In this document: piece by piece, positions 1,655 through 23,392 of the stretch
Layout of the letters: each line of letters starts with the position of its first letter
How positions within the stretch are numbered: position 1 is the stretch's first letter
Assembly: GCA_013202585.1 (NCBI GenBank)
Contig: JABMPQ010000038.1
Location: 1 to 53,391 of the forward strand
Direction: 5' to 3'
Length of the DNA: 53,391 bases
Source of the DNA: Parcubacteria group bacterium
Lineage (GTDB): Bacteria; Patescibacteriota; JABMPQ01
Translations under genes and position numbers: made by a program
Notes under the pieces: generated by a model
Databases searched by the model: none
The model's input: the letters and a program-made list of their open reading frames with translations, nothing else
Told to the model about the DNA's origin: nothing

Positions 1655-2332
1655 ATGAAGAACGTAACTTCTGTCCTATTTCTTATCGGCGCCAATTGTA
1701 TCCCGTTGGTTGGAACTATTTTTCTCGGCTGGGACATTTTGACTGTCCTTTTTGTCTACTGGTTAGAAACGATCGTAATGGGATTTTTTAGTGCTCTCAA
1801 GCTTTTTATTTCTAGTGGCAAATCGGGAGTAATGATCTACGGAGCAATAATATTTACTATTACCTACCCCATTTGGGTTTATGTATATTTGAAAGCTATC
1901 CAGGCTATGGCCGTAGTTATCCAGGGAGAAGAAGCGGCTATCACTGGCACCTCTCTGATAGAAGAGATAACTTTTCTTCTAGCCAATTTTAGTGGCTCGA
2001 TTATACTCGCCCTATTATCACTTTTTATTAGTCATGCTTTCTCCTTCGGCACCAACTTTCTCCGCCAAAAGGAATACAAAACACACCAACACCAAACCTT
2101 TAGTGATTTAATGTATGCTCCCTATAAACGCATAGTTACTATGCACATTGTTCTCTTCGCTGGTTCGTTTTTGGCTGTAATATTCAGTGCTCCCCATTTT
2201 TTCGTAGTTGTGCTAGTCATCTTAAAAATATTAGTCGATTTACTAGCTCACCTGGTCGAACATGGTATGATAAGCAGAGCTAGATTAGCTCAGTCTTCTT
2301 GGTTAGTTCTTTTTGGAGCACCAAAACATTAA
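1655..2332 (+). CDS. polytopic membrane protein, unknown function
   Basis: 225 aa with 5-6 hydrophobic segments. The N-terminus (IPLVGTIFLGWDILTVLFVYWLETIVMGFF) reminds me of a DUF-type membrane family; this is from memory and needs an HMM check. Confidence 0.65.
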   Translation: MKNVTSVLFLIGANCIPLVGTIFLGWDILTVLFVYWLETIVMGFFSALKLFISSGKSGVMIYGAIIFTITYPIWVYVYLKAIQAMAVVIQGEEAAITGTSLIEEITFLLANFSGSIILALLSLFISHAFSFGTNFLRQKEYKTHQHQTFSDLMYAPYKRIVTMHIVLFAGSFLAVIFSAPHFFVVVLVILKILVDLLAHLVEHGMISRARLAQSSWLVLFGAPKH

Positions 2333-2343
2333 TTAAAACAGTA

Positions 2344-3582
2344 ATGATCACAACTTCTATCATCTCACTCGTTATTCTCATCCTACTATCCTCATTTTTC
2401 TCCGGCGCGGAAATTGCGTTGTCTTCTTTGAATCCGATCAAAGTTAAAACACTCGTCAAGCAGCGTAAAAAAGGATCTAAAACCCTCGCTCGCCTGAAAG
2501 AAAAATCAGAGCGGACGATTATCACAATCTTAATTGGTAACAATATTGTAAACGTCGCTTCTGCTTCACTGGCCACTTACATTGCTACCGAAAAATTTGG
2601 TTCTAAAGGGTTGGGAATTGCCACTGGCGTAATGACTCTGATTATTTTAGTATTTGGGGAAATCACTCCCAAAACGCTAGCCACCACGCACGCCGAGCGA
2701 GTTTCCTTATTCATTGCCAGGCCGATCCTAATTCTCAGCTATATATTTTATCCGCTAATTGTTATTTTTGACGCCTTCGCTAGCCTGATCAGCCGGCTAT
2801 TCAAAACCCGTAAGCGCAAAGGGATCTCCGAGACAGAAATCAAAACAATGCTGGAATTTGGCGTTGCAGAAAAGGTAATCGATGAGGAGGAAAAAGATAT
2901 TATGCACCAAGCGATTAGGTTCAGCGACATTAAAGCGGAAACAACCATGACTCCCCTGAAAAAAGTATTCCGGTTGCCAGCGGCCACCCCAGCCAAGGAT
3001 GCTCTGGAGCCAATGCTGGACAGTGGTTTTTCGCGAGCGCCAATTTACGAAGGTCAAGATAAAAAAATCACCGGGATTGTCCTGCTCAAAGATGTTATGT
3101 ACTATATTCATGAAAAAGAAGGAGATAAGCTACTTAGTGAAATCGCTACCGACCCGATCTTTGTGCCGAGGAAAATGGAAATTGATGATGTCTTCAAAGC
3201 TTTCAAGGCCCAGCAAAAACATATTGCTCTAGTTGAGGACGAAGAAAAAGATGAAATTATTGGTTTAGTAACCATGGAGGATTTACTGGAAGAATTAATG
3301 GGTGAGATTACCGACGAGAGCGACATCACTCCTAATACTATTATTAGAATTAGTGAAAATACTATTGCCGTACATGGAGACACCTTAGTAAGTGAGATAA
3401 ATAGCTTTTTTCAGACTTCTCTGCCCATGAAGAAAAAAAGTTTGCGCTTATATGAGCTGATTAAGAATAATTTTCCGGAGTACAAGCAGGGAGCTCAACT
3501 AAAAATGGGTAATATTGTTTTTATCCTAGATAAGGTGGATGATGATAAAATAATGAAGGTGCGGATTAAAAAGAAGGGGTAA
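2344..3582 (+). CDS. CNNM/CorC-HlyC family transporter (DUF21 TM domain + CBS pair + CorC_HlyC domain)
   Basis: N-terminal motif FFSGAEIALSSLN, GEITPK, a CBS-pair region and a C-terminal transporter-associated domain. Start moved to ATG 2344 to remove the overlap with the upstream ORF. Confidence 0.88.
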   Translation: MITTSIISLVILILLSSFFSGAEIALSSLNPIKVKTLVKQRKKGSKTLARLKEKSERTIITILIGNNIVNVASASLATYIATEKFGSKGLGIATGVMTLIILVFGEITPKTLATTHAERVSLFIARPILILSYIFYPLIVIFDAFASLISRLFKTRKRKGISETEIKTMLEFGVAEKVIDEEEKDIMHQAIRFSDIKAETTMTPLKKVFRLPAATPAKDALEPMLDSGFSRAPIYEGQDKKITGIVLLKDVMYYIHEKEGDKLLSEIATDPIFVPRKMEIDDVFKAFKAQQKHIALVEDEEKDEIIGLVTMEDLLEELMGEITDESDITPNTIIRISENTIAVHGDTLVSEINSFFQTSLPMKKKSLRLYELIKNNFPEYKQGAQLKMGNIVFILDKVDDDKIMKVRIKKKG

Positions 3583-3604
3583 GTTAATTTTTCATTTTCG
3601 GGGC

Positions 3605-3642
3605 AACCGGCACGGGTGATTCTACGCCGGTTTTTTGTTTTT
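3605..3642 (+). terminator. rho-independent terminator after the CorC-like gene
   Basis: Stem aaccggc (3605..3611) / gccggtt (3626..3632), followed by ttttttgttttt. Confidence 0.55.
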
Positions 3643-3672
3643 GAGTGGTTGTTTGGCGATGCGATTTTTAGT

Positions 3673-3726
3673 AAAAAAAGACTCACCACGACGAGGATAG
3701 CAATTGCTAGTCCTGGTCGGGTGAGT
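3673..3726 (-). terminator. rho-independent terminator after the GC-rich ORF 3733..4215
   Basis: Long imperfect hairpin actcaccacgacgagga ... tcctggtcgggtgagt with a palindromic loop. A-run 3673..3679 gives a T-run on the minus strand. Confidence 0.55.
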
Positions 3727-3732
3727 AAAAGA

Positions 3733-4215
3733 TCAGCTCTCATCATCGTCATCGTCAGCGGGTGGAGGGCCGGCGTCAGGCGGGGGCGGTGATGAATCCG
3801 GAGCGGGCGGGCCTATGGAGCCAGCGTCGGAGGTGGGTGGCTTCTTGGGCTTGGTAGACTTTTTGAGTGGGGGCGGGGACTTGGTCGGGGACTTCTTCTT
3901 GGGGCTGCAATCGAAGCCCATCCGCAACGCTCCCGTGAAGCCCTTTATCAAGAGACAAACCGCGTCTCTGTCCTGCTCAGCGGCTTGCTTGTACTTAGCC
4001 ACCGCGTGTTTGCAGGCGACAAAGTTCCCCTCTGGGCAGGCCTCGAGCGCTGTCTCGAGCGCCTCGCTGCGGTCGTCCTCGGCCTCCTCAATCATGTTTT
4101 CCGCATTCTCATGCGCGGGGGTCTTTTCCCTACTGCACTCGCCGTAGAGAATCCCGGCACCAAAGATGAATCCTGCAGCCAAAACTGCGACAATAATCGT
4201 CCCGAGTTTTTCCAT
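3733..4215 (-). CDS. GC-rich ORFan: membrane-anchored protein with a Cys-containing helical domain, a Lys/Pro-rich linker and an acidic tail
   Basis: N-terminal TM (LGTIIVAVLAAGFIFGAGILYG). Strong SD (ggaaggag) 6-7 nt upstream of the ATG, and its own terminator. GC is visibly much higher than in the flanks. Confidence 0.65.
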   Translation of the reverse strand: MEKLGTIIVAVLAAGFIFGAGILYGECSREKTPAHENAENMIEEAEDDRSEALETALEACPEGNFVACKHAVAKYKQAAEQDRDAVCLLIKGFTGALRMGFDCSPKKKSPTKSPPPLKKSTKPKKPPTSDAGSIGPPAPDSSPPPPDAGPPPADDDDDES

Positions 4216-4536
4216 TTCTCACTCCTTCCCTTTTTTCAGGGAGTTTTTTCTGATTGTCTGTAAAACCTGCGATTATAGCAGTTTTGGATCATTTTAAATG
4301 CTTTAAAACAAGCCAAAAATCCTAAAATCGCAGGTTTGCCACCAACGCTGGAAAGGGCTTTCTAGACTATAATCTAGGTACTATTCGCGAGCATTACACT
4401 ATACCATAATTGATATTTATGTCAGTACATTCGCTGTTTTGGATTAGCTATTGACATAATAGTAGTATAATGCTATTATGTAATATTCGTAATCTGGAAT
4501 GAACCTCAAAAAAATCGCGAAGTCAAGGAGACAGAT

Positions 4537-5106
4537 ATGGAGATCGTTAGAACTACAGTAGGCTGGGTGATGTCGCTGACGACCGCAAATGTGGTTGTGA
4601 TTGTAATTGTCGTCGGGCTGCTCGTGGCCGGTCTCATAGCTAGCCGCCCGAAAATTATCGAAGCTATAGGAGACTGGATAGCGTCGAGCTGGGTGATGTC
4701 GCTGACGATCACGAGCGTGGTCGTGACAGTGGTAGTCATCGGGTTGATCGGATTCAGCCTGAACAAGTGTAACGACTGGACCGAGCAGGATGTCAAGATC
4801 GTCTCAGTCGTCGATCCTGATGATCCAGACTCCGACATCATGGAAGTGGTCTGGAAGGAGAAGGTCACGATGGTGGGAGCAATGTGGTCGAACTGCGGTT
4901 TGCCCAAGACACTCTACAAGGATGACGCCTTCATTGTGCCGAGATTATTTATTCTCGGCTTCGAAGAAGGAGCCGTCCTCAAGTCGGGAGCCAACCGCGG
5001 CGGGTTTGATATCAACATCACCCCCCAGTGGTTGAAGCCGGCCACCAAACGGTTGACAAAATATATCAACCTTTCTTTCAACTGTCAGTACACCCTCTAC
5101 TTCTGA
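4537..5106 (+). CDS. GC-rich ORFan: two-TM membrane protein with a duplicated TM module and a C-terminal domain of about 110 aa
   Basis: SD aaggag 7 nt upstream of the ATG. Duplicated module W-VMSLT-x-VVV...GL. Terminator downstream. The antisense ORF 4506..4907 lacks these signals. Confidence 0.6.
   Translation: MEIVRTTVGWVMSLTTANVVVIVIVVGLLVAGLIASRPKIIEAIGDWIASSWVMSLTITSVVVTVVVIGLIGFSLNKCNDWTEQDVKIVSVVDPDDPDSDIMEVVWKEKVTMVGAMWSNCGLPKTLYKDDAFIVPRLFILGFEEGAVLKSGANRGGFDINITPQWLKPATKRLTKYINLSFNCQYTLYF
4562..4708 (+). repeat. 21-nt perfect direct repeat (gctgggtgatgtcgctgacga) at 4562..4582 and 4688..4708, 126 nt apart, in frame
   Basis: Read directly. It corresponds to the repeated peptide (G/S)WVMSLT at the start of each TM helix. 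Confidence 0.8.
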
Positions 5107-5136
5107 CAACGATTCCCGCCCTTTCGCCCTGTTCCC

Positions 5137-5169
5137 GAGCCACGCTCTCAATGCGCGGCTCATTTTTTT
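5137..5169 (+). terminator. rho-independent terminator after ORF 4537..5106
   Basis: Stem gagccacgc / gcgcggctc (1 mismatch), followed by atttttttt. Confidence 0.6.
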
Positions 5170-5215
5170 ACGCAAAAACTGCCCTAAACACACAGGCAGC
5201 TTTGTAAGATAATAT

Positions 5216-6727
5216 TTATTTTACCAAACTCTCTCCCGTCATCTCGGCTGGTTGCGGTAAGCCTAACATTTCCAACACCGTCGGCGCCACATCCGACAGC
5301 TTACCTTCTTCCCGATTAGTTTTATATCGCTCGCTCGCCAAGATAAACGGCACTGGATTGATTGTATGGCTAGTCACGGGCTCACCCGTCCCCGTATCAA
5401 AAACTTCCTCGGCATTACCATGGTCAGCGGTAATAATAATATGATAACCTTCAGCCAGCCCCGCCTCCACGATCTCACCCAAAGCCTGATCAATTACCTC
5501 CACTCCTTTTTTCACCGGCTCGATCTTGGCTGTGTGCCCGACCATATCTCCATTACACAAGTTAGAAAATATCACCTGGTGAGTTCCTGCTTTAATATCT
5601 TGGACAATCTCACGAGCAATATCGGGTGTGCGCATTTCCGGCTTCTCATCATGAGTAGCAATATCCGAATAGGAATCTAACATCATTCGATCCTCTCCCT
5701 CTAGCGCCGCCATTTTTTTACAATTGAGAAAATAGGTGAGGTGGTTAAATTTCTCTGTTTCGGTGATACGTAGTTGTTTTAAGCCCGCTTGAGAGATAAC
5801 CTCTCCTAAAGTATTGGCTACTTGCTCTGACGGAAAAGCTACTCGACAGTCAAATTCTTTCCGGTACTGCGACATCGTCACGTAGTCCAAATTGGCAATA
5901 TCTGATTCGAGAAACTTTTGCGACAACTGCACCGCTCGATCCGACCGAAAATTAACAGATATGACAGCATCATTGGAACTAACGCAACCTTCTTCACCCG
6001 GCTCCATTTCAATGATAGAAGGCTTAATAAACTCGTCCGTTTCCTGATGATCATAGGCATCTTCGATCGCTTCCCGGGCGGAAGTATACTTACGACCCTC
6101 CCCCTTGGTAATAGCGGCAAAAGCGGCTTCCGTCCGTTCCAGATTATTGTCCCGATCCATCGCCCAATAGCGACCGGTAACCGAAGCAATCCGGCCCAAA
6201 CCTAATTTATTCATAAAGTCTTGTAGCTCTTTGACATATTTGAGGGCGCTCTTGGGAGCCGTATCTCGCCCATCAGTAAAAACGTGTACTTCCACGCGCG
6301 GCACGCCTATCTTTTTAGCCAATGATAACAAAGCATAAAAATGCTCCTGATGCGAATGTACCCCACCACTACTAACTAGGCCTTGTAAATGCAAACAACT
6401 TTGGTGCTTTTTCACGTGTTCCATTGCTTTGGTAAGCGCTTCATTGCCAGCCATATTATCCCGCTTGATCGCCTGATCTATTTTCATCAAATCCTGAAAA
6501 ATTACCCGGCCAGCGCCAATAGTCATGTGGTTAACTTCCGAAGTGCCCATTTGTCCTGCCGGCAAACCGACTGACATACCAGCAGCCCCCAACACCGCGT
6601 GCGAATAATCGCGCCAAAGCTGATCATAATTAGGTGTTCGCGCCTGCGCAATCGCATTATGATCTTTTTCTTCCCGGTGACCCCAGCCATCGAGAATAAG
6701 CAAAACTATTTTTTCTTGTTTGGTCAT
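5216..6727 (-). CDS. gpmI: 2,3-bisphosphoglycerate-independent phosphoglycerate mutase
   Basis: LLILDGWG, SEVNHMTIGAGR, TDGRDT and ADHGNAE motifs. Start set to the MTKQEK Met (6727) rather than the upstream extension. Confidence 0.92.
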   Translation of the reverse strand: MTKQEKIVLLILDGWGHREEKDHNAIAQARTPNYDQLWRDYSHAVLGAAGMSVGLPAGQMGTSEVNHMTIGAGRVIFQDLMKIDQAIKRDNMAGNEALTKAMEHVKKHQSCLHLQGLVSSGGVHSHQEHFYALLSLAKKIGVPRVEVHVFTDGRDTAPKSALKYVKELQDFMNKLGLGRIASVTGRYWAMDRDNNLERTEAAFAAITKGEGRKYTSAREAIEDAYDHQETDEFIKPSIIEMEPGEEGCVSSNDAVISVNFRSDRAVQLSQKFLESDIANLDYVTMSQYRKEFDCRVAFPSEQVANTLGEVISQAGLKQLRITETEKFNHLTYFLNCKKMAALEGEDRMMLDSYSDIATHDEKPEMRTPDIAREIVQDIKAGTHQVIFSNLCNGDMVGHTAKIEPVKKGVEVIDQALGEIVEAGLAEGYHIIITADHGNAEEVFDTGTGEPVTSHTINPVPFILASERYKTNREEGKLSDVAPTVLEMLGLPQPAEMTGESLVK

Positions 6728-6844
6728 ATTAGTTGATTGACATTGCTTCCAGCATAGTATTTTGACGAATAAATTCAATACCATTGAAAAATCCGGCGGC
6801 GTATGCTAACCTCAGACTTACTGGTGACCGGTGTTGACCAACCT

Positions 6845-6916
6845 GCCCTTGTGGTGAAATGGATATCACTACTGGCTTCGGACCAGTCATTGGGGGTTCG
6901 AATCCCTCCGAGGGCA
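6845..6916 (+). tRNA. tRNA-Arg (anticodon TCG)
   Basis: Manual cloverleaf: acceptor GCCCTTG/CGAGGGC, D arm GTGA-AATGGATA-TCAC, anticodon arm ACTGG-CTTCGGA-CCAGT, T arm GGGGG-TTCGAAT-CCCTC, discriminator A. CCA is not encoded. Confidence 0.85.
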
Positions 6917-6937
6917 TAATAAATACACGAAACAAAA

Positions 6938-7002
6938 CCAGCCATTGGGGGTTCCCACCCTAACGGGTGGTCACCCGCAGGGTGAGAATCCCTCCGAGGG
7001 CA
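6938..7002 (+). pseudogene. duplicated 3' portion (positions about 39-73) of tRNA-Arg, interrupted in the T-loop by a 31-nt double-hairpin insert (6955..6985)
   Basis: ccagCcattgggggttc + [ccaccctaacgggtgg tcacccgcagggtga] + gaatccctccgagggca, versus the intact gene ccagTcattgggggttc|gaatccctccgagggca. No 5' half is present. Confidence 0.7.
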
Positions 7003-7033
7003 AATTAAAACAACATCCATGTTTACTGACAAA

Positions 7034-7192
7034 ATGAAATTTCGCTTTGGCTTTATCTTTATTGGTGTTTTTTTGGTGGTAATTGGTTGCTTCCTCTATC
7101 TAGGCTGGCGGCAAGGAGAAAAAATCGAAAGACACGAAGCTAGCAGCATTACCGAAGATTTGCGGACAATGACTGGCCAACTGACTCGGTAG
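7034..7192 (+). CDS. possible 52-aa single-TM protein (below the ORF-track cutoff)
   Basis: ATG 7034 to TAG 7190..7192, translating to MKFRFGFIFIGVFLVVIGCFLYLGWRQGEK... There is no other support. Confidence 0.3.
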   Translation: MKFRFGFIFIGVFLVVIGCFLYLGWRQGEKIERHEASSITEDLRTMTGQLTR

Positions 7193-7207
7193 GTTTATTA
7201 TTGTAAT

Positions 7208-7240
7208 GAGCCCGTAGCTGTCTGCCGGCAGGCAGGGCTC
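7208..7240. repeat. GC-rich palindromic hairpin containing ctgtctgccggcaggcagg; near-identical to the palindrome inside rsmA (50808..50827)
   Basis: Core ctgcc/ggcag with extension and outer gagcc/ggctc pairing. 18 of 19 positions match 50809..50827. Confidence 0.5.
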
Positions 7241-7265
7241 AGTTGACGCTCTCCTATATTTTAGA

Positions 7266-7322
7266 GGGCCCGTAGCTCAGCTGGTAGAGCGTCCCGATGG
7301 ACATCGGGAAAGTCAGGAGTTC
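7266..7322 (+). pseudogene. orphan 5' fragment (positions 1-56) of a tRNA-Ala-like gene, ending exactly at T-loop TTC
   Basis: The acceptor 5' strand, D arm and T-stem 5' strand are identical to the downstream tRNA-Ala. The anticodon stem differs and the anticodon loop has 8 nt (ATGGACAT versus ATGGCAT). No 3' half follows; the GIY-YIG ORF does. Confidence 0.7.
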
Positions 7323-7344
7323 TGGAATACAATAAATTAATAGC

Positions 7345-7611
7345 ATGGAGGGGTTTGTTTATATTATAAGAAGTCTAAAAAGTGGTCATTTTTATGTTGG
7401 TAGCACCAAAAATGTTCAGAATAGAGTCATTGAGCACAATTTAGGAAAAACACGATCAACAAAATACCGTACGCCTTGGCAGTTAGTCTTTTACAAAAAA
7501 TACGACGACATTAACAAAGCAAAGCGGATTGAATATAAGTTGAAGAAGGCAAAAAGTAGAAAAATAATAGAGAGAATTATTCGAGACAGAGATATAAAGA
7601 TGGGCCCGTAG
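7345..7611 (+). CDS. GIY-YIG nuclease family protein (small stand-alone, UPF0213/COG2827-like)
   Basis: FVYIIRS...GHFYVGST..V..R..EHN and a downstream conserved Glu (IEYKLKK). The stop codon lies within the first 10 nt of tRNA-Ala. Confidence 0.85.
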   Translation: MEGFVYIIRSLKSGHFYVGSTKNVQNRVIEHNLGKTRSTKYRTPWQLVFYKKYDDINKAKRIEYKLKKAKSRKIIERIIRDRDIKMGP

Positions 7612-7677
7612 CTCAGCTGGTAGAGCACATCCATGGCATGGATGGGGTCAGGAGTTCGAATCTCCTCGGGTCCACCA
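7602..7677 (+). tRNA. tRNA-Ala (anticodon GGC), CCA encoded
   Basis: Manual cloverleaf: GGGCCCG/CGGGTCC acceptor with the G3:U70 Ala identity pair, anticodon arm CATCC-ATGGCAT-GGATG, T arm AGGAG-TTCGAAT-CTCCT, ACCA 3' end. Confidence 0.88.
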
Positions 7678-22870: not shown

Positions 22871-23392
22871 ATGGATAAGCTTATTGTTTGTGCGTCGTTT
22901 CTGGCTCTTTTTCTCGTCGCCTGCGGTGGTGAGATCGACACTGGTTCTGAACCAGTGTCGGAGCCCACCTCGCCCCCTCAGTACGCGACCGATCCGGACG
23001 GGGGATCCAGCCAGCCCGAGCCTGACGCCGGACCCGAATACGCGAAGTTCGGGCAACCCTGCGACGGCACAACGATCCGTTGTACCGGCAACTTTGTCTG
23101 CACCGACTACGGCTACTGCAGCTTCCAAAGTTGCAGCAGTTGCAACCAGTCGGATATGTTTCCCTGGCTGAAAGGAACTAAGACGGGCTATTGCTTGTCT
23201 AGCACTTGGCTAGGTGGGGTCTGTGGGTATACCTGCAAGGAAGAGGACTTCTATGGGAAATCCGAAACCTGGCCTTGCCCAATCGGGTTGGCCTGCAAGT
23301 ACAAACACGGCCCCTATTCGGCCTCCGGCTCGATAAAGTACCTCTGGTTCTGCATCAATCCAACCTACCCCGTTCCGTCGCCAACCTCCTGA
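22871..23392 (+). CDS. GC-rich ORFan: Cys-rich secreted lipoprotein
   Basis: Lipobox signal MDKLIVCASFLALFLVAC|GG, a Pro/acidic linker, then about 18 Cys. SD ggagg lies 6 nt upstream of the ATG. Overlapping ORFs in other frames look like GC-shadow ORFs. Confidence 0.7.
   Translation: MDKLIVCASFLALFLVACGGEIDTGSEPVSEPTSPPQYATDPDGGSSQPEPDAGPEYAKFGQPCDGTTIRCTGNFVCTDYGYCSFQSCSSCNQSDMFPWLKGTKTGYCLSSTWLGGVCGYTCKEEDFYGKSETWPCPIGLACKYKHGPYSASGSIKYLWFCINPTYPVPSPTS

Follow-up and report, generated by a model that had tools for sequence, protein, structure and literature searches.

The window analysed here is a 53,391-nt stretch of DNA from a Parcubacteria group bacterium (GTDB lineage Bacteria; Patescibacteriota; JABMPQ01), namely contig JABMPQ010000038.1 of assembly GCA_013202585.1. 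The genome that holds it (G000) is a metagenome-assembled genome (MAG) of 1.22 Mb in 78 contigs, with a GC content of 0.428 and a completeness of 79%. Positions 3583–5215 of the window form a block of 1,633 bp between two convergent genes, a CorC-like transporter gene and the phosphoglycerate mutase gene gpmI. The block holds only two open reading frames (ORFs), and no known domain was recognised in either. ORF A and ORF B are divergent and monocistronic, and each is led by a canonical Shine-Dalgarno (SD) site and closed by its own intrinsic terminator, as the initial annotation of the window had described; both terminators fold into a hairpin with a U7 run behind it (Table 1). That annotation, made from the sequence alone, had read the block as a GC-rich island that a donor with higher GC and SD use, perhaps the host of an episymbiont, had recently passed on. 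The comparisons below retain the island and its atypical composition and set aside its recent date. The block is probably an old accessory islet of ultimately foreign type, which has been inherited vertically within the genus and is variably present there.

In 300-bp windows, GC content is 0.57–0.63 at 3601–4200 and 0.50–0.52 at 4501–5550, falls to 0.35 in the divergent intergenic region, and is 0.35–0.45 in the left flank. The rise reported in the initial annotation is thus borne out, and the excess is located at synonymous sites of ORF A and ORF B. Both have a GC content at third codon positions (GC3) of 0.70, which places them in the top 1.8% of G000 genes (mean 0.42, standard deviation 0.09, median 0.41). 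At first and second codon positions (GC1 and GC2), ORF A has values of 0.60 and 0.50 and ORF B of 0.48 and 0.38, with genome means of 0.51 and 0.36. Several shadow ORFs lie beside the two genes, as had been noted and as is expected since the DNA is GC-rich. The block is not unique in this respect, as G000 contains 84 GC-rich segments of at least 350 bp. The SD-poor background claimed for the housekeeping genes also stands: an SD of five to six nucleotides is missing in 40 of the 44 genes called in the window, including rpoB, rpoC, uvrA, the CorC-like gene and gpmI, while the four genes that have one all have a GC3 of at least 0.58.

The block is real sequence and not an assembly artefact. Logan contigs, assembled run by run from four freshwater-metagenome runs, cross the left junction (3478–3762 and 3508–3818), the right junction (5084–5327 and 5088–5801) and the join between ORF A and the intergenic region (4142–4473) with zero differences; the contigs at these coordinates come from three further samples. 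The gene-flank joins are also reproduced in two other assemblies, both of relatives, and the chimera that the initial annotation had wished to see excluded is not found.

The block is variably present among congeners. It is filled in G000, in the congener genome G002 (with L018) and in L019, and empty in the complete congener G001, which confirms the presence/absence polymorphism that had been suggested as a check; L018 and L019 are assembled contigs of relatives. In G001, gpmI (4874–6388, +) abuts the CorC-like gene (6389–7669, −) with 0 bp between the stops, so that the site is exactly empty and shows neither repeats nor scars. G002 carries a homolog of ORF B (P0004, 71% amino acid identity) beside gpmI at a contig start, and L018 a homolog of ORF A (P0002, 67%) beside the 3′-end of the CorC-like gene. 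In L019, a more distant member of the ORF B family (P0005, 37%), with one transmembrane (TM) segment, is convergent with a gpmI that is 87% identical to that of G000 and thus about as distant as that of G001. L018 may belong to the same species as G002, because its coverage starts ~20 bp past the end of the G002 contig carrying the CorC-like gene.

All these copies have a GC3 of 0.66–0.74, against 0.39–0.52 for their flanking genes (G000, G002, L018 and L019), and all retain their SDs and terminators. Between G000 and G002, the synonymous divergence (dS) of ORF B is 0.67, the same as that of gpmI, and the dS of ORF A is 0.97 against 1.12 for the CorC-like gene. Nonsynonymous divergence (dN) is three to four times that of the flanks, with dN/dS ratios of 0.21 for ORF A and 0.28 for ORF B. 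The match of dS with the flanks, together with these ratios, indicates vertical co-divergence under purifying selection. In a nucleotide tree of gpmI, G000 and G002 group together (support 99.6/96), L019 joins them next (60/53), and G001 follows. Most plausibly, the islet entered the lineage, or has existed in it since, before the split of G000, G002 and L019, and it is at least of genus-level age. The word “recent” therefore has to be dropped from the initial annotation: homologs with equal GC3 occupy the same locus in congeners at 71% and 37% identity, and ORF B has diverged at synonymous sites as far as gpmI. Homologs of the same composition are thus conserved at the locus, which largely amounts to the outcome that the annotation had itself named as speaking against its proposal.

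The two genes have all four features of a class of ~50 genes per genome, defined within the G000/G001 pair by a GC3 of at least 0.6, an SD of five to six nucleotides, a terminator-like hairpin of the gene's own and large gaps to either side. SD use climbs from 7% of genes with GC3 below 0.45 to 74% of those at 0.65 or above (Fisher p = 3e-17). In G000 and G001, 57–60% of class genes have an SD, against 8–12% by chance in a same-size control window. The rate in bulk genes is 7–10% against 5% by chance, so close to chance that the bulk genome is essentially SD-less. Large gaps on both sides are found for 89% of class genes and 25% of bulk genes, and terminator-like hairpins for 58% and 11%, respectively. 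Third bases of class genes are C at a frequency of 0.38 and G at 0.31, a profile that ORF A and ORF B match, and the Cys content of class proteins is about twice that of bulk proteins (2.2% and 1.06%, respectively; p = 1e-11). Class genes prefer TAG as stop codon (30/50) and bulk genes TAA (62%), while ORF A and ORF B both end in TGA.

The 3′-end of the 16S rRNA is GGATCACCTCCTTTCT in both G000 and G001, with CCTCC (the CCUCC anti-SD) intact; the 16S rRNA of G000 gave no Rfam match, and its 3′ terminal fragment at a contig end was located by motif search. The genes for EF-Tu, EF-G, GroEL, DnaK, S12, enolase and GAPDH have a GC3 of 0.37–0.47 and mostly lack an SD. As ribosomal protein L2 was not found in the incomplete G000, the ribosomal-protein cluster of G001 was used, and its 24 genes have a mean GC3 of 0.39 with an SD in 4%. 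Overall, these housekeeping and ribosomal-protein genes have a GC3 of 0.33–0.50 and almost no SD.

Turnover is high among class genes. By reciprocal best hits of G000 against the whole G001 genome, 73–81% of genes with GC3 of 0.35–0.55 have an ortholog in G001, compared with 30% at 0.55–0.65 and 13% (4/30) at 0.65 or above. Those class genes that are shared keep their GC3 (0.71 to 0.73) and their SD, and G001 has its own class composed largely of different genes. Genes with GC3 below 0.35 (188 in G000) are also mostly accessory, 26% of them having a G001 ortholog against ~80% in the mid-range.

Among ten scanned class members are genes for an enoyl-CoA hydratase (ECH), thiolase, asparaginase, a class-III aminotransferase, an M20 peptidase and radical-SAM enzymes, besides ORFans and Cys-rich lipoproteins. 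The ECH gene (G000 C13:28741–29892) is the most extreme, with a GC3 of 0.90, and lies near a contig end. Its nearest relatives, at 57–75% identity, belong to Pseudomonadota (71%), Myxococcota (62–75%) and Acidobacteriota, and none to Patescibacteria. Either the gene crossed between phyla very recently or the contig end is chimeric. Its relatives in other phyla indicate that a foreign origin is real for at least part of the class. A third class cassette of the window lies between rpoB and uvrA (22871–23392, +) and encodes a 173-aa Cys-rich lipoprotein with the lipobox LVAC, at a GC3 of 0.68 and with the SD GGAGG. Its syntenic ortholog in G001 has a GC3 of 0.65 and is 40% identical, against 83–91% for the flanking genes; 4-fold degenerate sites of the pair are saturated (identity 0.31 against 0.28 expected).

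Table 1. Features of the block and its flanking genes (positions are those of the window).
Feature	Position	Strand	Properties	Basis
CorC/CNNM-type transporter gene (left flank)	2299–3582	+	CNNM, 2x CBS and CorC_HlyC domains	Pfam 1.9e-53, 3.9e-16, 6.6e-05
Intrinsic terminator of the CorC-like gene	3600–3640	+	CCGGC...GCCGG hairpin, then T6 run	sequence and fold
Intrinsic terminator of ORF A	3673–3726	−	long hairpin, then U7 run	−27.4 kcal/mol, z −5.8
ORF A	3733–4215	−	160 aa; GC3 0.70; TGA stop	ORF and sequence
SD of ORF A	4222–4229	−	GGAAGGAG, 6 nt from ATG	sequence
Inverted repeat with 36-nt arms	4263–4337	.	predicted 5′ leader of ORF A	arms 83% complementary
Promoter-like site of ORF A	4398–4425	−	CTGACA-16-TATAGT; TG upstream of −10	promoter scan 10/12
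Promoter-like site of ORF B	4451–4507	+	TTGACA-17-TATTAT; TG-extended	promoter scan 11/12
SD of ORF B	4525–4530	+	AAGGAG, 6 nt from ATG	same SD in G002 and L019
ORF B	4537–5106	+	189 aa; GC3 0.70; TGA stop	ORF and repeat
Intrinsic terminator of ORF B	5137–5169	+	GAGCC...GGCUC hairpin, then U7 run	−15 kcal/mol
Intrinsic terminator of gpmI	5170–5207	−	CUGCC...GGCAG hairpin, then U5 run	−13.6 kcal/mol
gpmI, cofactor-independent phosphoglycerate mutase (right flank)	5216–6727	−	iPGM_N and Metalloenzyme domains	Pfam 1.7e-74, 4.9e-69

ORF A begins with a hydrophobic segment (about residues 1–27) that forms a putative TM anchor. An acidic domain follows at residues 33–94, with four helices predicted in a low-confidence AlphaFold2 model, and the C-terminal part is a Lys/Pro-rich spacer that closes on the acidic DDDDDES end already recorded in the initial annotation. 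Five cysteines are conserved in P0002, its sole homolog: C27 at the end of the anchor, C60, C68, C87, and C103 at the start of the spacer, just past the helical domain. These features suggest a single-pass membrane protein that would turn its Cys-containing helical domain, its spacer and its acidic tip to the outside. A bacterial lipoprotein was considered and rejected, as no lipobox ([LVI][ASTVI][GAS]C closing the signal peptide) is present; the residues at this place are LYGEC in G000 and LYGDC in P0002, so that position −1 is acidic. A Pro-rich spacer with a poly-Asp/Glu C-terminus (e.g. ...KDDDEDDDDSDDEDE) is common to four G000 proteins with GC3 of 0.55–0.73, ORF A and the products of C18:1821–3185, C44:285–1181 and C57:2875–3342. 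ORF A and the C18 protein also have an N-terminal TM anchor. The shared tail may serve in surface display or anchoring.

The expression signals of ORF A are conserved where they can be compared. The L018 homolog has the SD GGGAAAGGAG, and L019 has TTGACA...TATAAT at the aligned positions of the promoter-like site. The terminator is conserved in L018, and its fold was matched by 0 of 200 shuffles. The inverted repeat in the predicted leader folds at −34 kcal/mol (z −6.7), is followed by UUUU on the minus strand, and is unique in G000, with no copies in G001. It may act as an attenuator or operator. An Rfam search of 3400–5400 gave only generic sub-threshold matches to miRNA precursors, which fall on this hairpin. 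The contig start of G002 and the contig end of L018 flank the inverted repeat on either side.

The duplicated helix that the initial annotation had seen in ORF B corresponds to a 63-nt direct repeat (4562–4624 and 4688–4750, 78% identical). The predicted two-TM hairpin arises by this internal duplication, and the L019 relative has one TM segment. A C-terminal domain of ~110 aa follows, with a Cys pair (C120 and C183) conserved in all three family members. ORF B thus appears to be anchored in the membrane by its duplicated TM hairpin and to expose a C-terminal ectodomain of ~110 aa, which may be disulfide-bonded. The promoter-like site is overlapped by a palindrome of 14+14 nt (4454–4481). From the −10 element into the leader (4474–4507, 34 nt), 32/34 positions are identical in L019 and 29/34 in G002; in L019 this stretch is therefore 94% identical while the protein is only 37% identical, which suggests a conserved regulatory element. 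The terminator is conserved in G002 and L019. The leader segment is unique in G000 and is not repeated in G001. Neither the hairpin of ORF A nor the leader of ORF B is thus a repeated element, a candidate that was rejected for both.

Both topologies are predicted from hydrophobic segments, conserved cysteines and the positive-inside rule, and the two products are most likely accessory cell-surface or envelope proteins. Because both evolve fast, a surface role such as wall association, partner contact or phage contact is suggested. Homologs were sought in a word index of 5.8 billion protein clusters, in a full HMMER pass over 1.84 billion representatives, and in 60 related genomes, IMG/VR, PLSDB and JGI metagenome contigs, the last by profile and by leader DNA pattern. 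Only the members in G002, L018 and L019 were recovered, and the two genes appear to found new genus-restricted ORFan families. Within G000 no paralogs were found, only low-complexity Pro-rich matches, and searches of Pfam, NCBIfam, PADLOC, PHROGs and PDB sequences gave only sub-threshold matches. The initial annotation had also proposed an effector/immunity-like function, which finds no support in these searches or in the arrangement of the genes. A toxin-antitoxin or effector/immunity pair is not indicated, as the genes are divergent with separate terminators, where co-transcribed neighbours would be expected, and gave no significant match to a toxin, immunity or defence domain in Pfam, NCBIfam, PADLOC or PHROGs.

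The CorC-like gene has a GC3 of 0.44 and gpmI, whose start was set at MTKQEK following its orthologs, one of 0.46; neither has an SD. The G001 ortholog of the CorC-like gene is 84% identical, and gpmI orthologs are 91% identical in G002, 87% in L019 and 84–85% in G001. The terminators of both flanking genes lie within the variably present block, and that of the CorC-like gene is kept in L018. In G001 the stops of the two genes are adjacent (C44:6388/6389) with no intergenic terminator, while G000 has the terminators of both inside the block. The gpmI of the window is of a second, divergent type. In G001 (second copy at C23:20375–21943) and in G008, gpmI occurs twice, and the two genes of each genome share ~46% identity. 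In the three other genomes searched, G003 of the same family and G004 and G005 of the same order, the only copies are ~42% identical to that of the window. G000, which is 79% complete, yielded no second copy.

On the reading favoured here, the islet would consist of two self-contained monocistronic units placed back to back, each with a near-consensus promoter of the sigma-70 type, a leader, a strong SD and its own intrinsic terminator. The SDs of both genes would pair with the intact CCUCC anti-SD of the lineage’s 16S rRNA, and the products would be small, fast-evolving, genus-restricted ORFan proteins of the surface or envelope. The islet would be a typical member of the ~50-gene class, embedded in the dense and effectively SD-less bulk genome of a freshwater bacterium. 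That class most plausibly began as imported genes, at least one member being clearly of non-Patescibacteria origin, and the composition of the islet would have undergone no noticeable drift toward that of its host since the lineages split.

Several observations weigh against this reading. ORF B has host-like GC1 and GC2 with GC3 alone raised, whereas an import that had partly ameliorated after leaving a very GC-rich source should show the opposite pattern. The amelioration framework for horizontally acquired genes is reportedly that of Lawrence and Ochman. At the 4-fold sites of the flanking gene, ~70% of positions are randomised between G000 and L019 (identity 0.48 against 0.27 expected). If the GC content at 4-fold sites (GC4) simply decayed exponentially to its bulk value of 0.46, ORF B would need an ancestral GC4 of ~0.94, which favours active maintenance over a fading foreign signature. 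For the shared class genes, the same model gives ancestral values of 0.81–0.84 overall and 0.89–0.99 in the fast-evolving subset, a requirement that would be strained but not impossible. No homolog of either gene was found outside the genus in the databases listed above, and the block lacks the marks of an insertion, with no mobility gene, tRNA target, target-site duplication or terminal repeat. The phylogenetic signal is also limited: the nucleotide tree of gpmI places G001 outside the island-bearing lineages at a support of only 60/53, and the protein tree is a polytomy. Either one gain after the split of G001 or one loss in it is possible, and the two are not separable. If L018 and G002 are one species, the independent island-bearing lineages may number three and not four. 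The AlphaFold2 models of the predicted surface proteins have predicted local distance difference test scores (pLDDT) of 54 for ORF A (low confidence) and 37 for ORF B (two-sequence alignment, not usable), which makes either unfit for a fold search, and a look for RNA runs found none listed.

The strongest competitor, which we regard as a genuine if minority possibility, holds that the class genes are long-standing residents whose GC3 and SDs are kept by selection or a biased process, so that the genome has two translation regimes and the composition does not come from a foreign origin. A possible reason would be that SD-dependent, leadered monocistronic mRNAs need a GC-rich coding sequence for stability or structure. 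This agrees with the ancestral GC4 values demanded by pure decay and with the native-like GC1 and GC2 of ORF B, whose GC3 is 0.66–0.74 in three lineages despite the extensive randomisation of gpmI 4-fold sites. It also agrees with the lipoprotein gene at 22871–23392, which keeps its GC3 in G000 and G001 at saturated 4-fold sites, with the co-occurrence of SD, terminator and gap features in two genomes, and with the conservation of the ORF B leader relative to its protein. Against it, 87% of genes with GC3 of at least 0.65 are missing from the complete congener G001, and the share with an ortholog climbs from 13% through 30% to 73% toward the bulk GC3, as import followed by amelioration predicts. 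Moreover, at least one class member (ECH) is clearly of a foreign phylum, class genes are on average raised in GC1 and GC2 too, and the pooled decay requirement of 0.81–0.84 is attainable. Synonymous changes in ORF B, polarised with L019 as outgroup, amount to only ~4 informative events, too few to decide between decay and maintenance. A fuller form of this idea is speculative, and we hold it as doubtful: the genus would run two regimes in one 1.2-Mb genome, a dense, SD-less, AT3-rich core and a small set of insulated, SD-dependent, GC3-rich monocistronic cassettes in which selection on mRNA or translation, or else biased repair or conversion, actively maintains GC3 and SD. The islet between the CorC-like gene and gpmI would then be a conserved regulon member with a regulatory leader, and the cassettes may encode fast-evolving Cys-rich surface proteins and accessory enzymes.

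It is improbable that the block was handed over recently by a donor with higher GC and SD use, perhaps the episymbiont's host. The atypical composition, the SDs, the exact empty site in G001 and the cross-phylum origin of ECH would all fit such an event, but the block lies at the same locus in two or three further congeneric lineages at 37–71% amino acid identity with a dS equal to that of the flanks, and no homologs outside the genus were found in the databases searched. No closer homolog in a plausible donor or host lineage was found in these databases, including the 5.8 billion clusters and 1.84 billion representatives, and the higher-GC donor of the initial annotation is left without a candidate. 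What stands of its proposal of foreign acquisition is the foreign-looking, SD-led composition and, at the level of the class, the cross-phylum import represented by ECH; for the islet itself no donor was detected. It is still less probable that the high GC3 and strong SDs are those of native genes expressed at very high levels and under translational selection. In many bacteria, highly expressed genes do combine strong SDs with biased codons, and both ORF A and ORF B have near-consensus promoters. However, the housekeeping controls and the 24 genes of the ribosomal-protein cluster have low GC3 and almost no SD, and the class is therefore not a signature of expression-level codon bias; asparaginase, aminotransferase and radical-SAM genes are also among its members. 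Least probable of all is a GC-rich segment misjoined from another organism during assembly or binning. Many other class genes lie near contig ends and the MAG is incomplete, but the run-by-run contigs cross both junctions and the join at ORF A without a difference, and G002, L018 and L019 reproduce the gene-flank joins. The old accessory islet remains the probable explanation.

Genomic islands and horizontally transferred genes have been catalogued in Patescibacteria (PMC12455944). The block resembles horizontally acquired genomic islets in its sharply bounded atypical composition, its presence/absence polymorphism and its accessory ORFans, and other class members have cross-phylum relatives. 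It differs in having no integrase, tRNA target, flanking repeats or identifiable donor, in holding a GC3 of ~0.7 while flanking 4-fold sites have been ~70% randomised, and in a signal that is tightly bound up with SD use, wide gaps and terminators of the genes' own, within an otherwise SD-less genome. In the passages of the catalogue consulted, no description of a link between GC3, SD, terminators and gaps was found (PMC12455944). The two units are also comparable in their arrangement to morons of phages. Morons are self-contained promoter-gene-terminator cassettes inserted between genes, and ORF A and ORF B share with them the autonomous units between unrelated genes and the divergent composition. 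The block differs in that its flanks are chromosomal housekeeping genes (the CorC-like gene and gpmI) and not a prophage; no viral relatives of either ORF were found in IMG/VR, and PHROGs matches were non-significant. Bacteroidota are known for an SD-poor translation regime. An anti-SD motif was detected in only 48% of Parcubacteria, a subgroup being without the motif (PMC9297842). The bulk genes of G000, including ribosomal-protein genes, resemble both of these SD-poor regimes in their A/T-rich upstream regions without SD. G000 differs from them in its intact CCUCC anti-SD and in a minority accessory class with strong canonical SDs. In the literature searched, no account was found that ties GC3 excess to SD use, transcriptional insulation and high turnover, a tight coupling that here occurs together with an intact anti-SD and an SD-less core.

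The islet is a clear and unusually well-dated instance of this accessory-gene class. Atypical composition is routinely taken as a sign of recent horizontal transfer; the genes of the islet are accessory and yet too old for that reading. Should GC3, SD use, insulation and turnover be linked throughout Patescibacteria, the link would provide a cheap, sequence-only marker by which to recognise, in uncultured episymbionts, an accessory genome that probably abounds in surface proteins. The link would also raise the testable question of how SD-less and canonical SD-dependent translation share the same ribosomes, and amelioration-based dating may fail for genes of this class. The families of ORF A and ORF B are candidates for the biology of the cell surface, of host contact or of phage contact.

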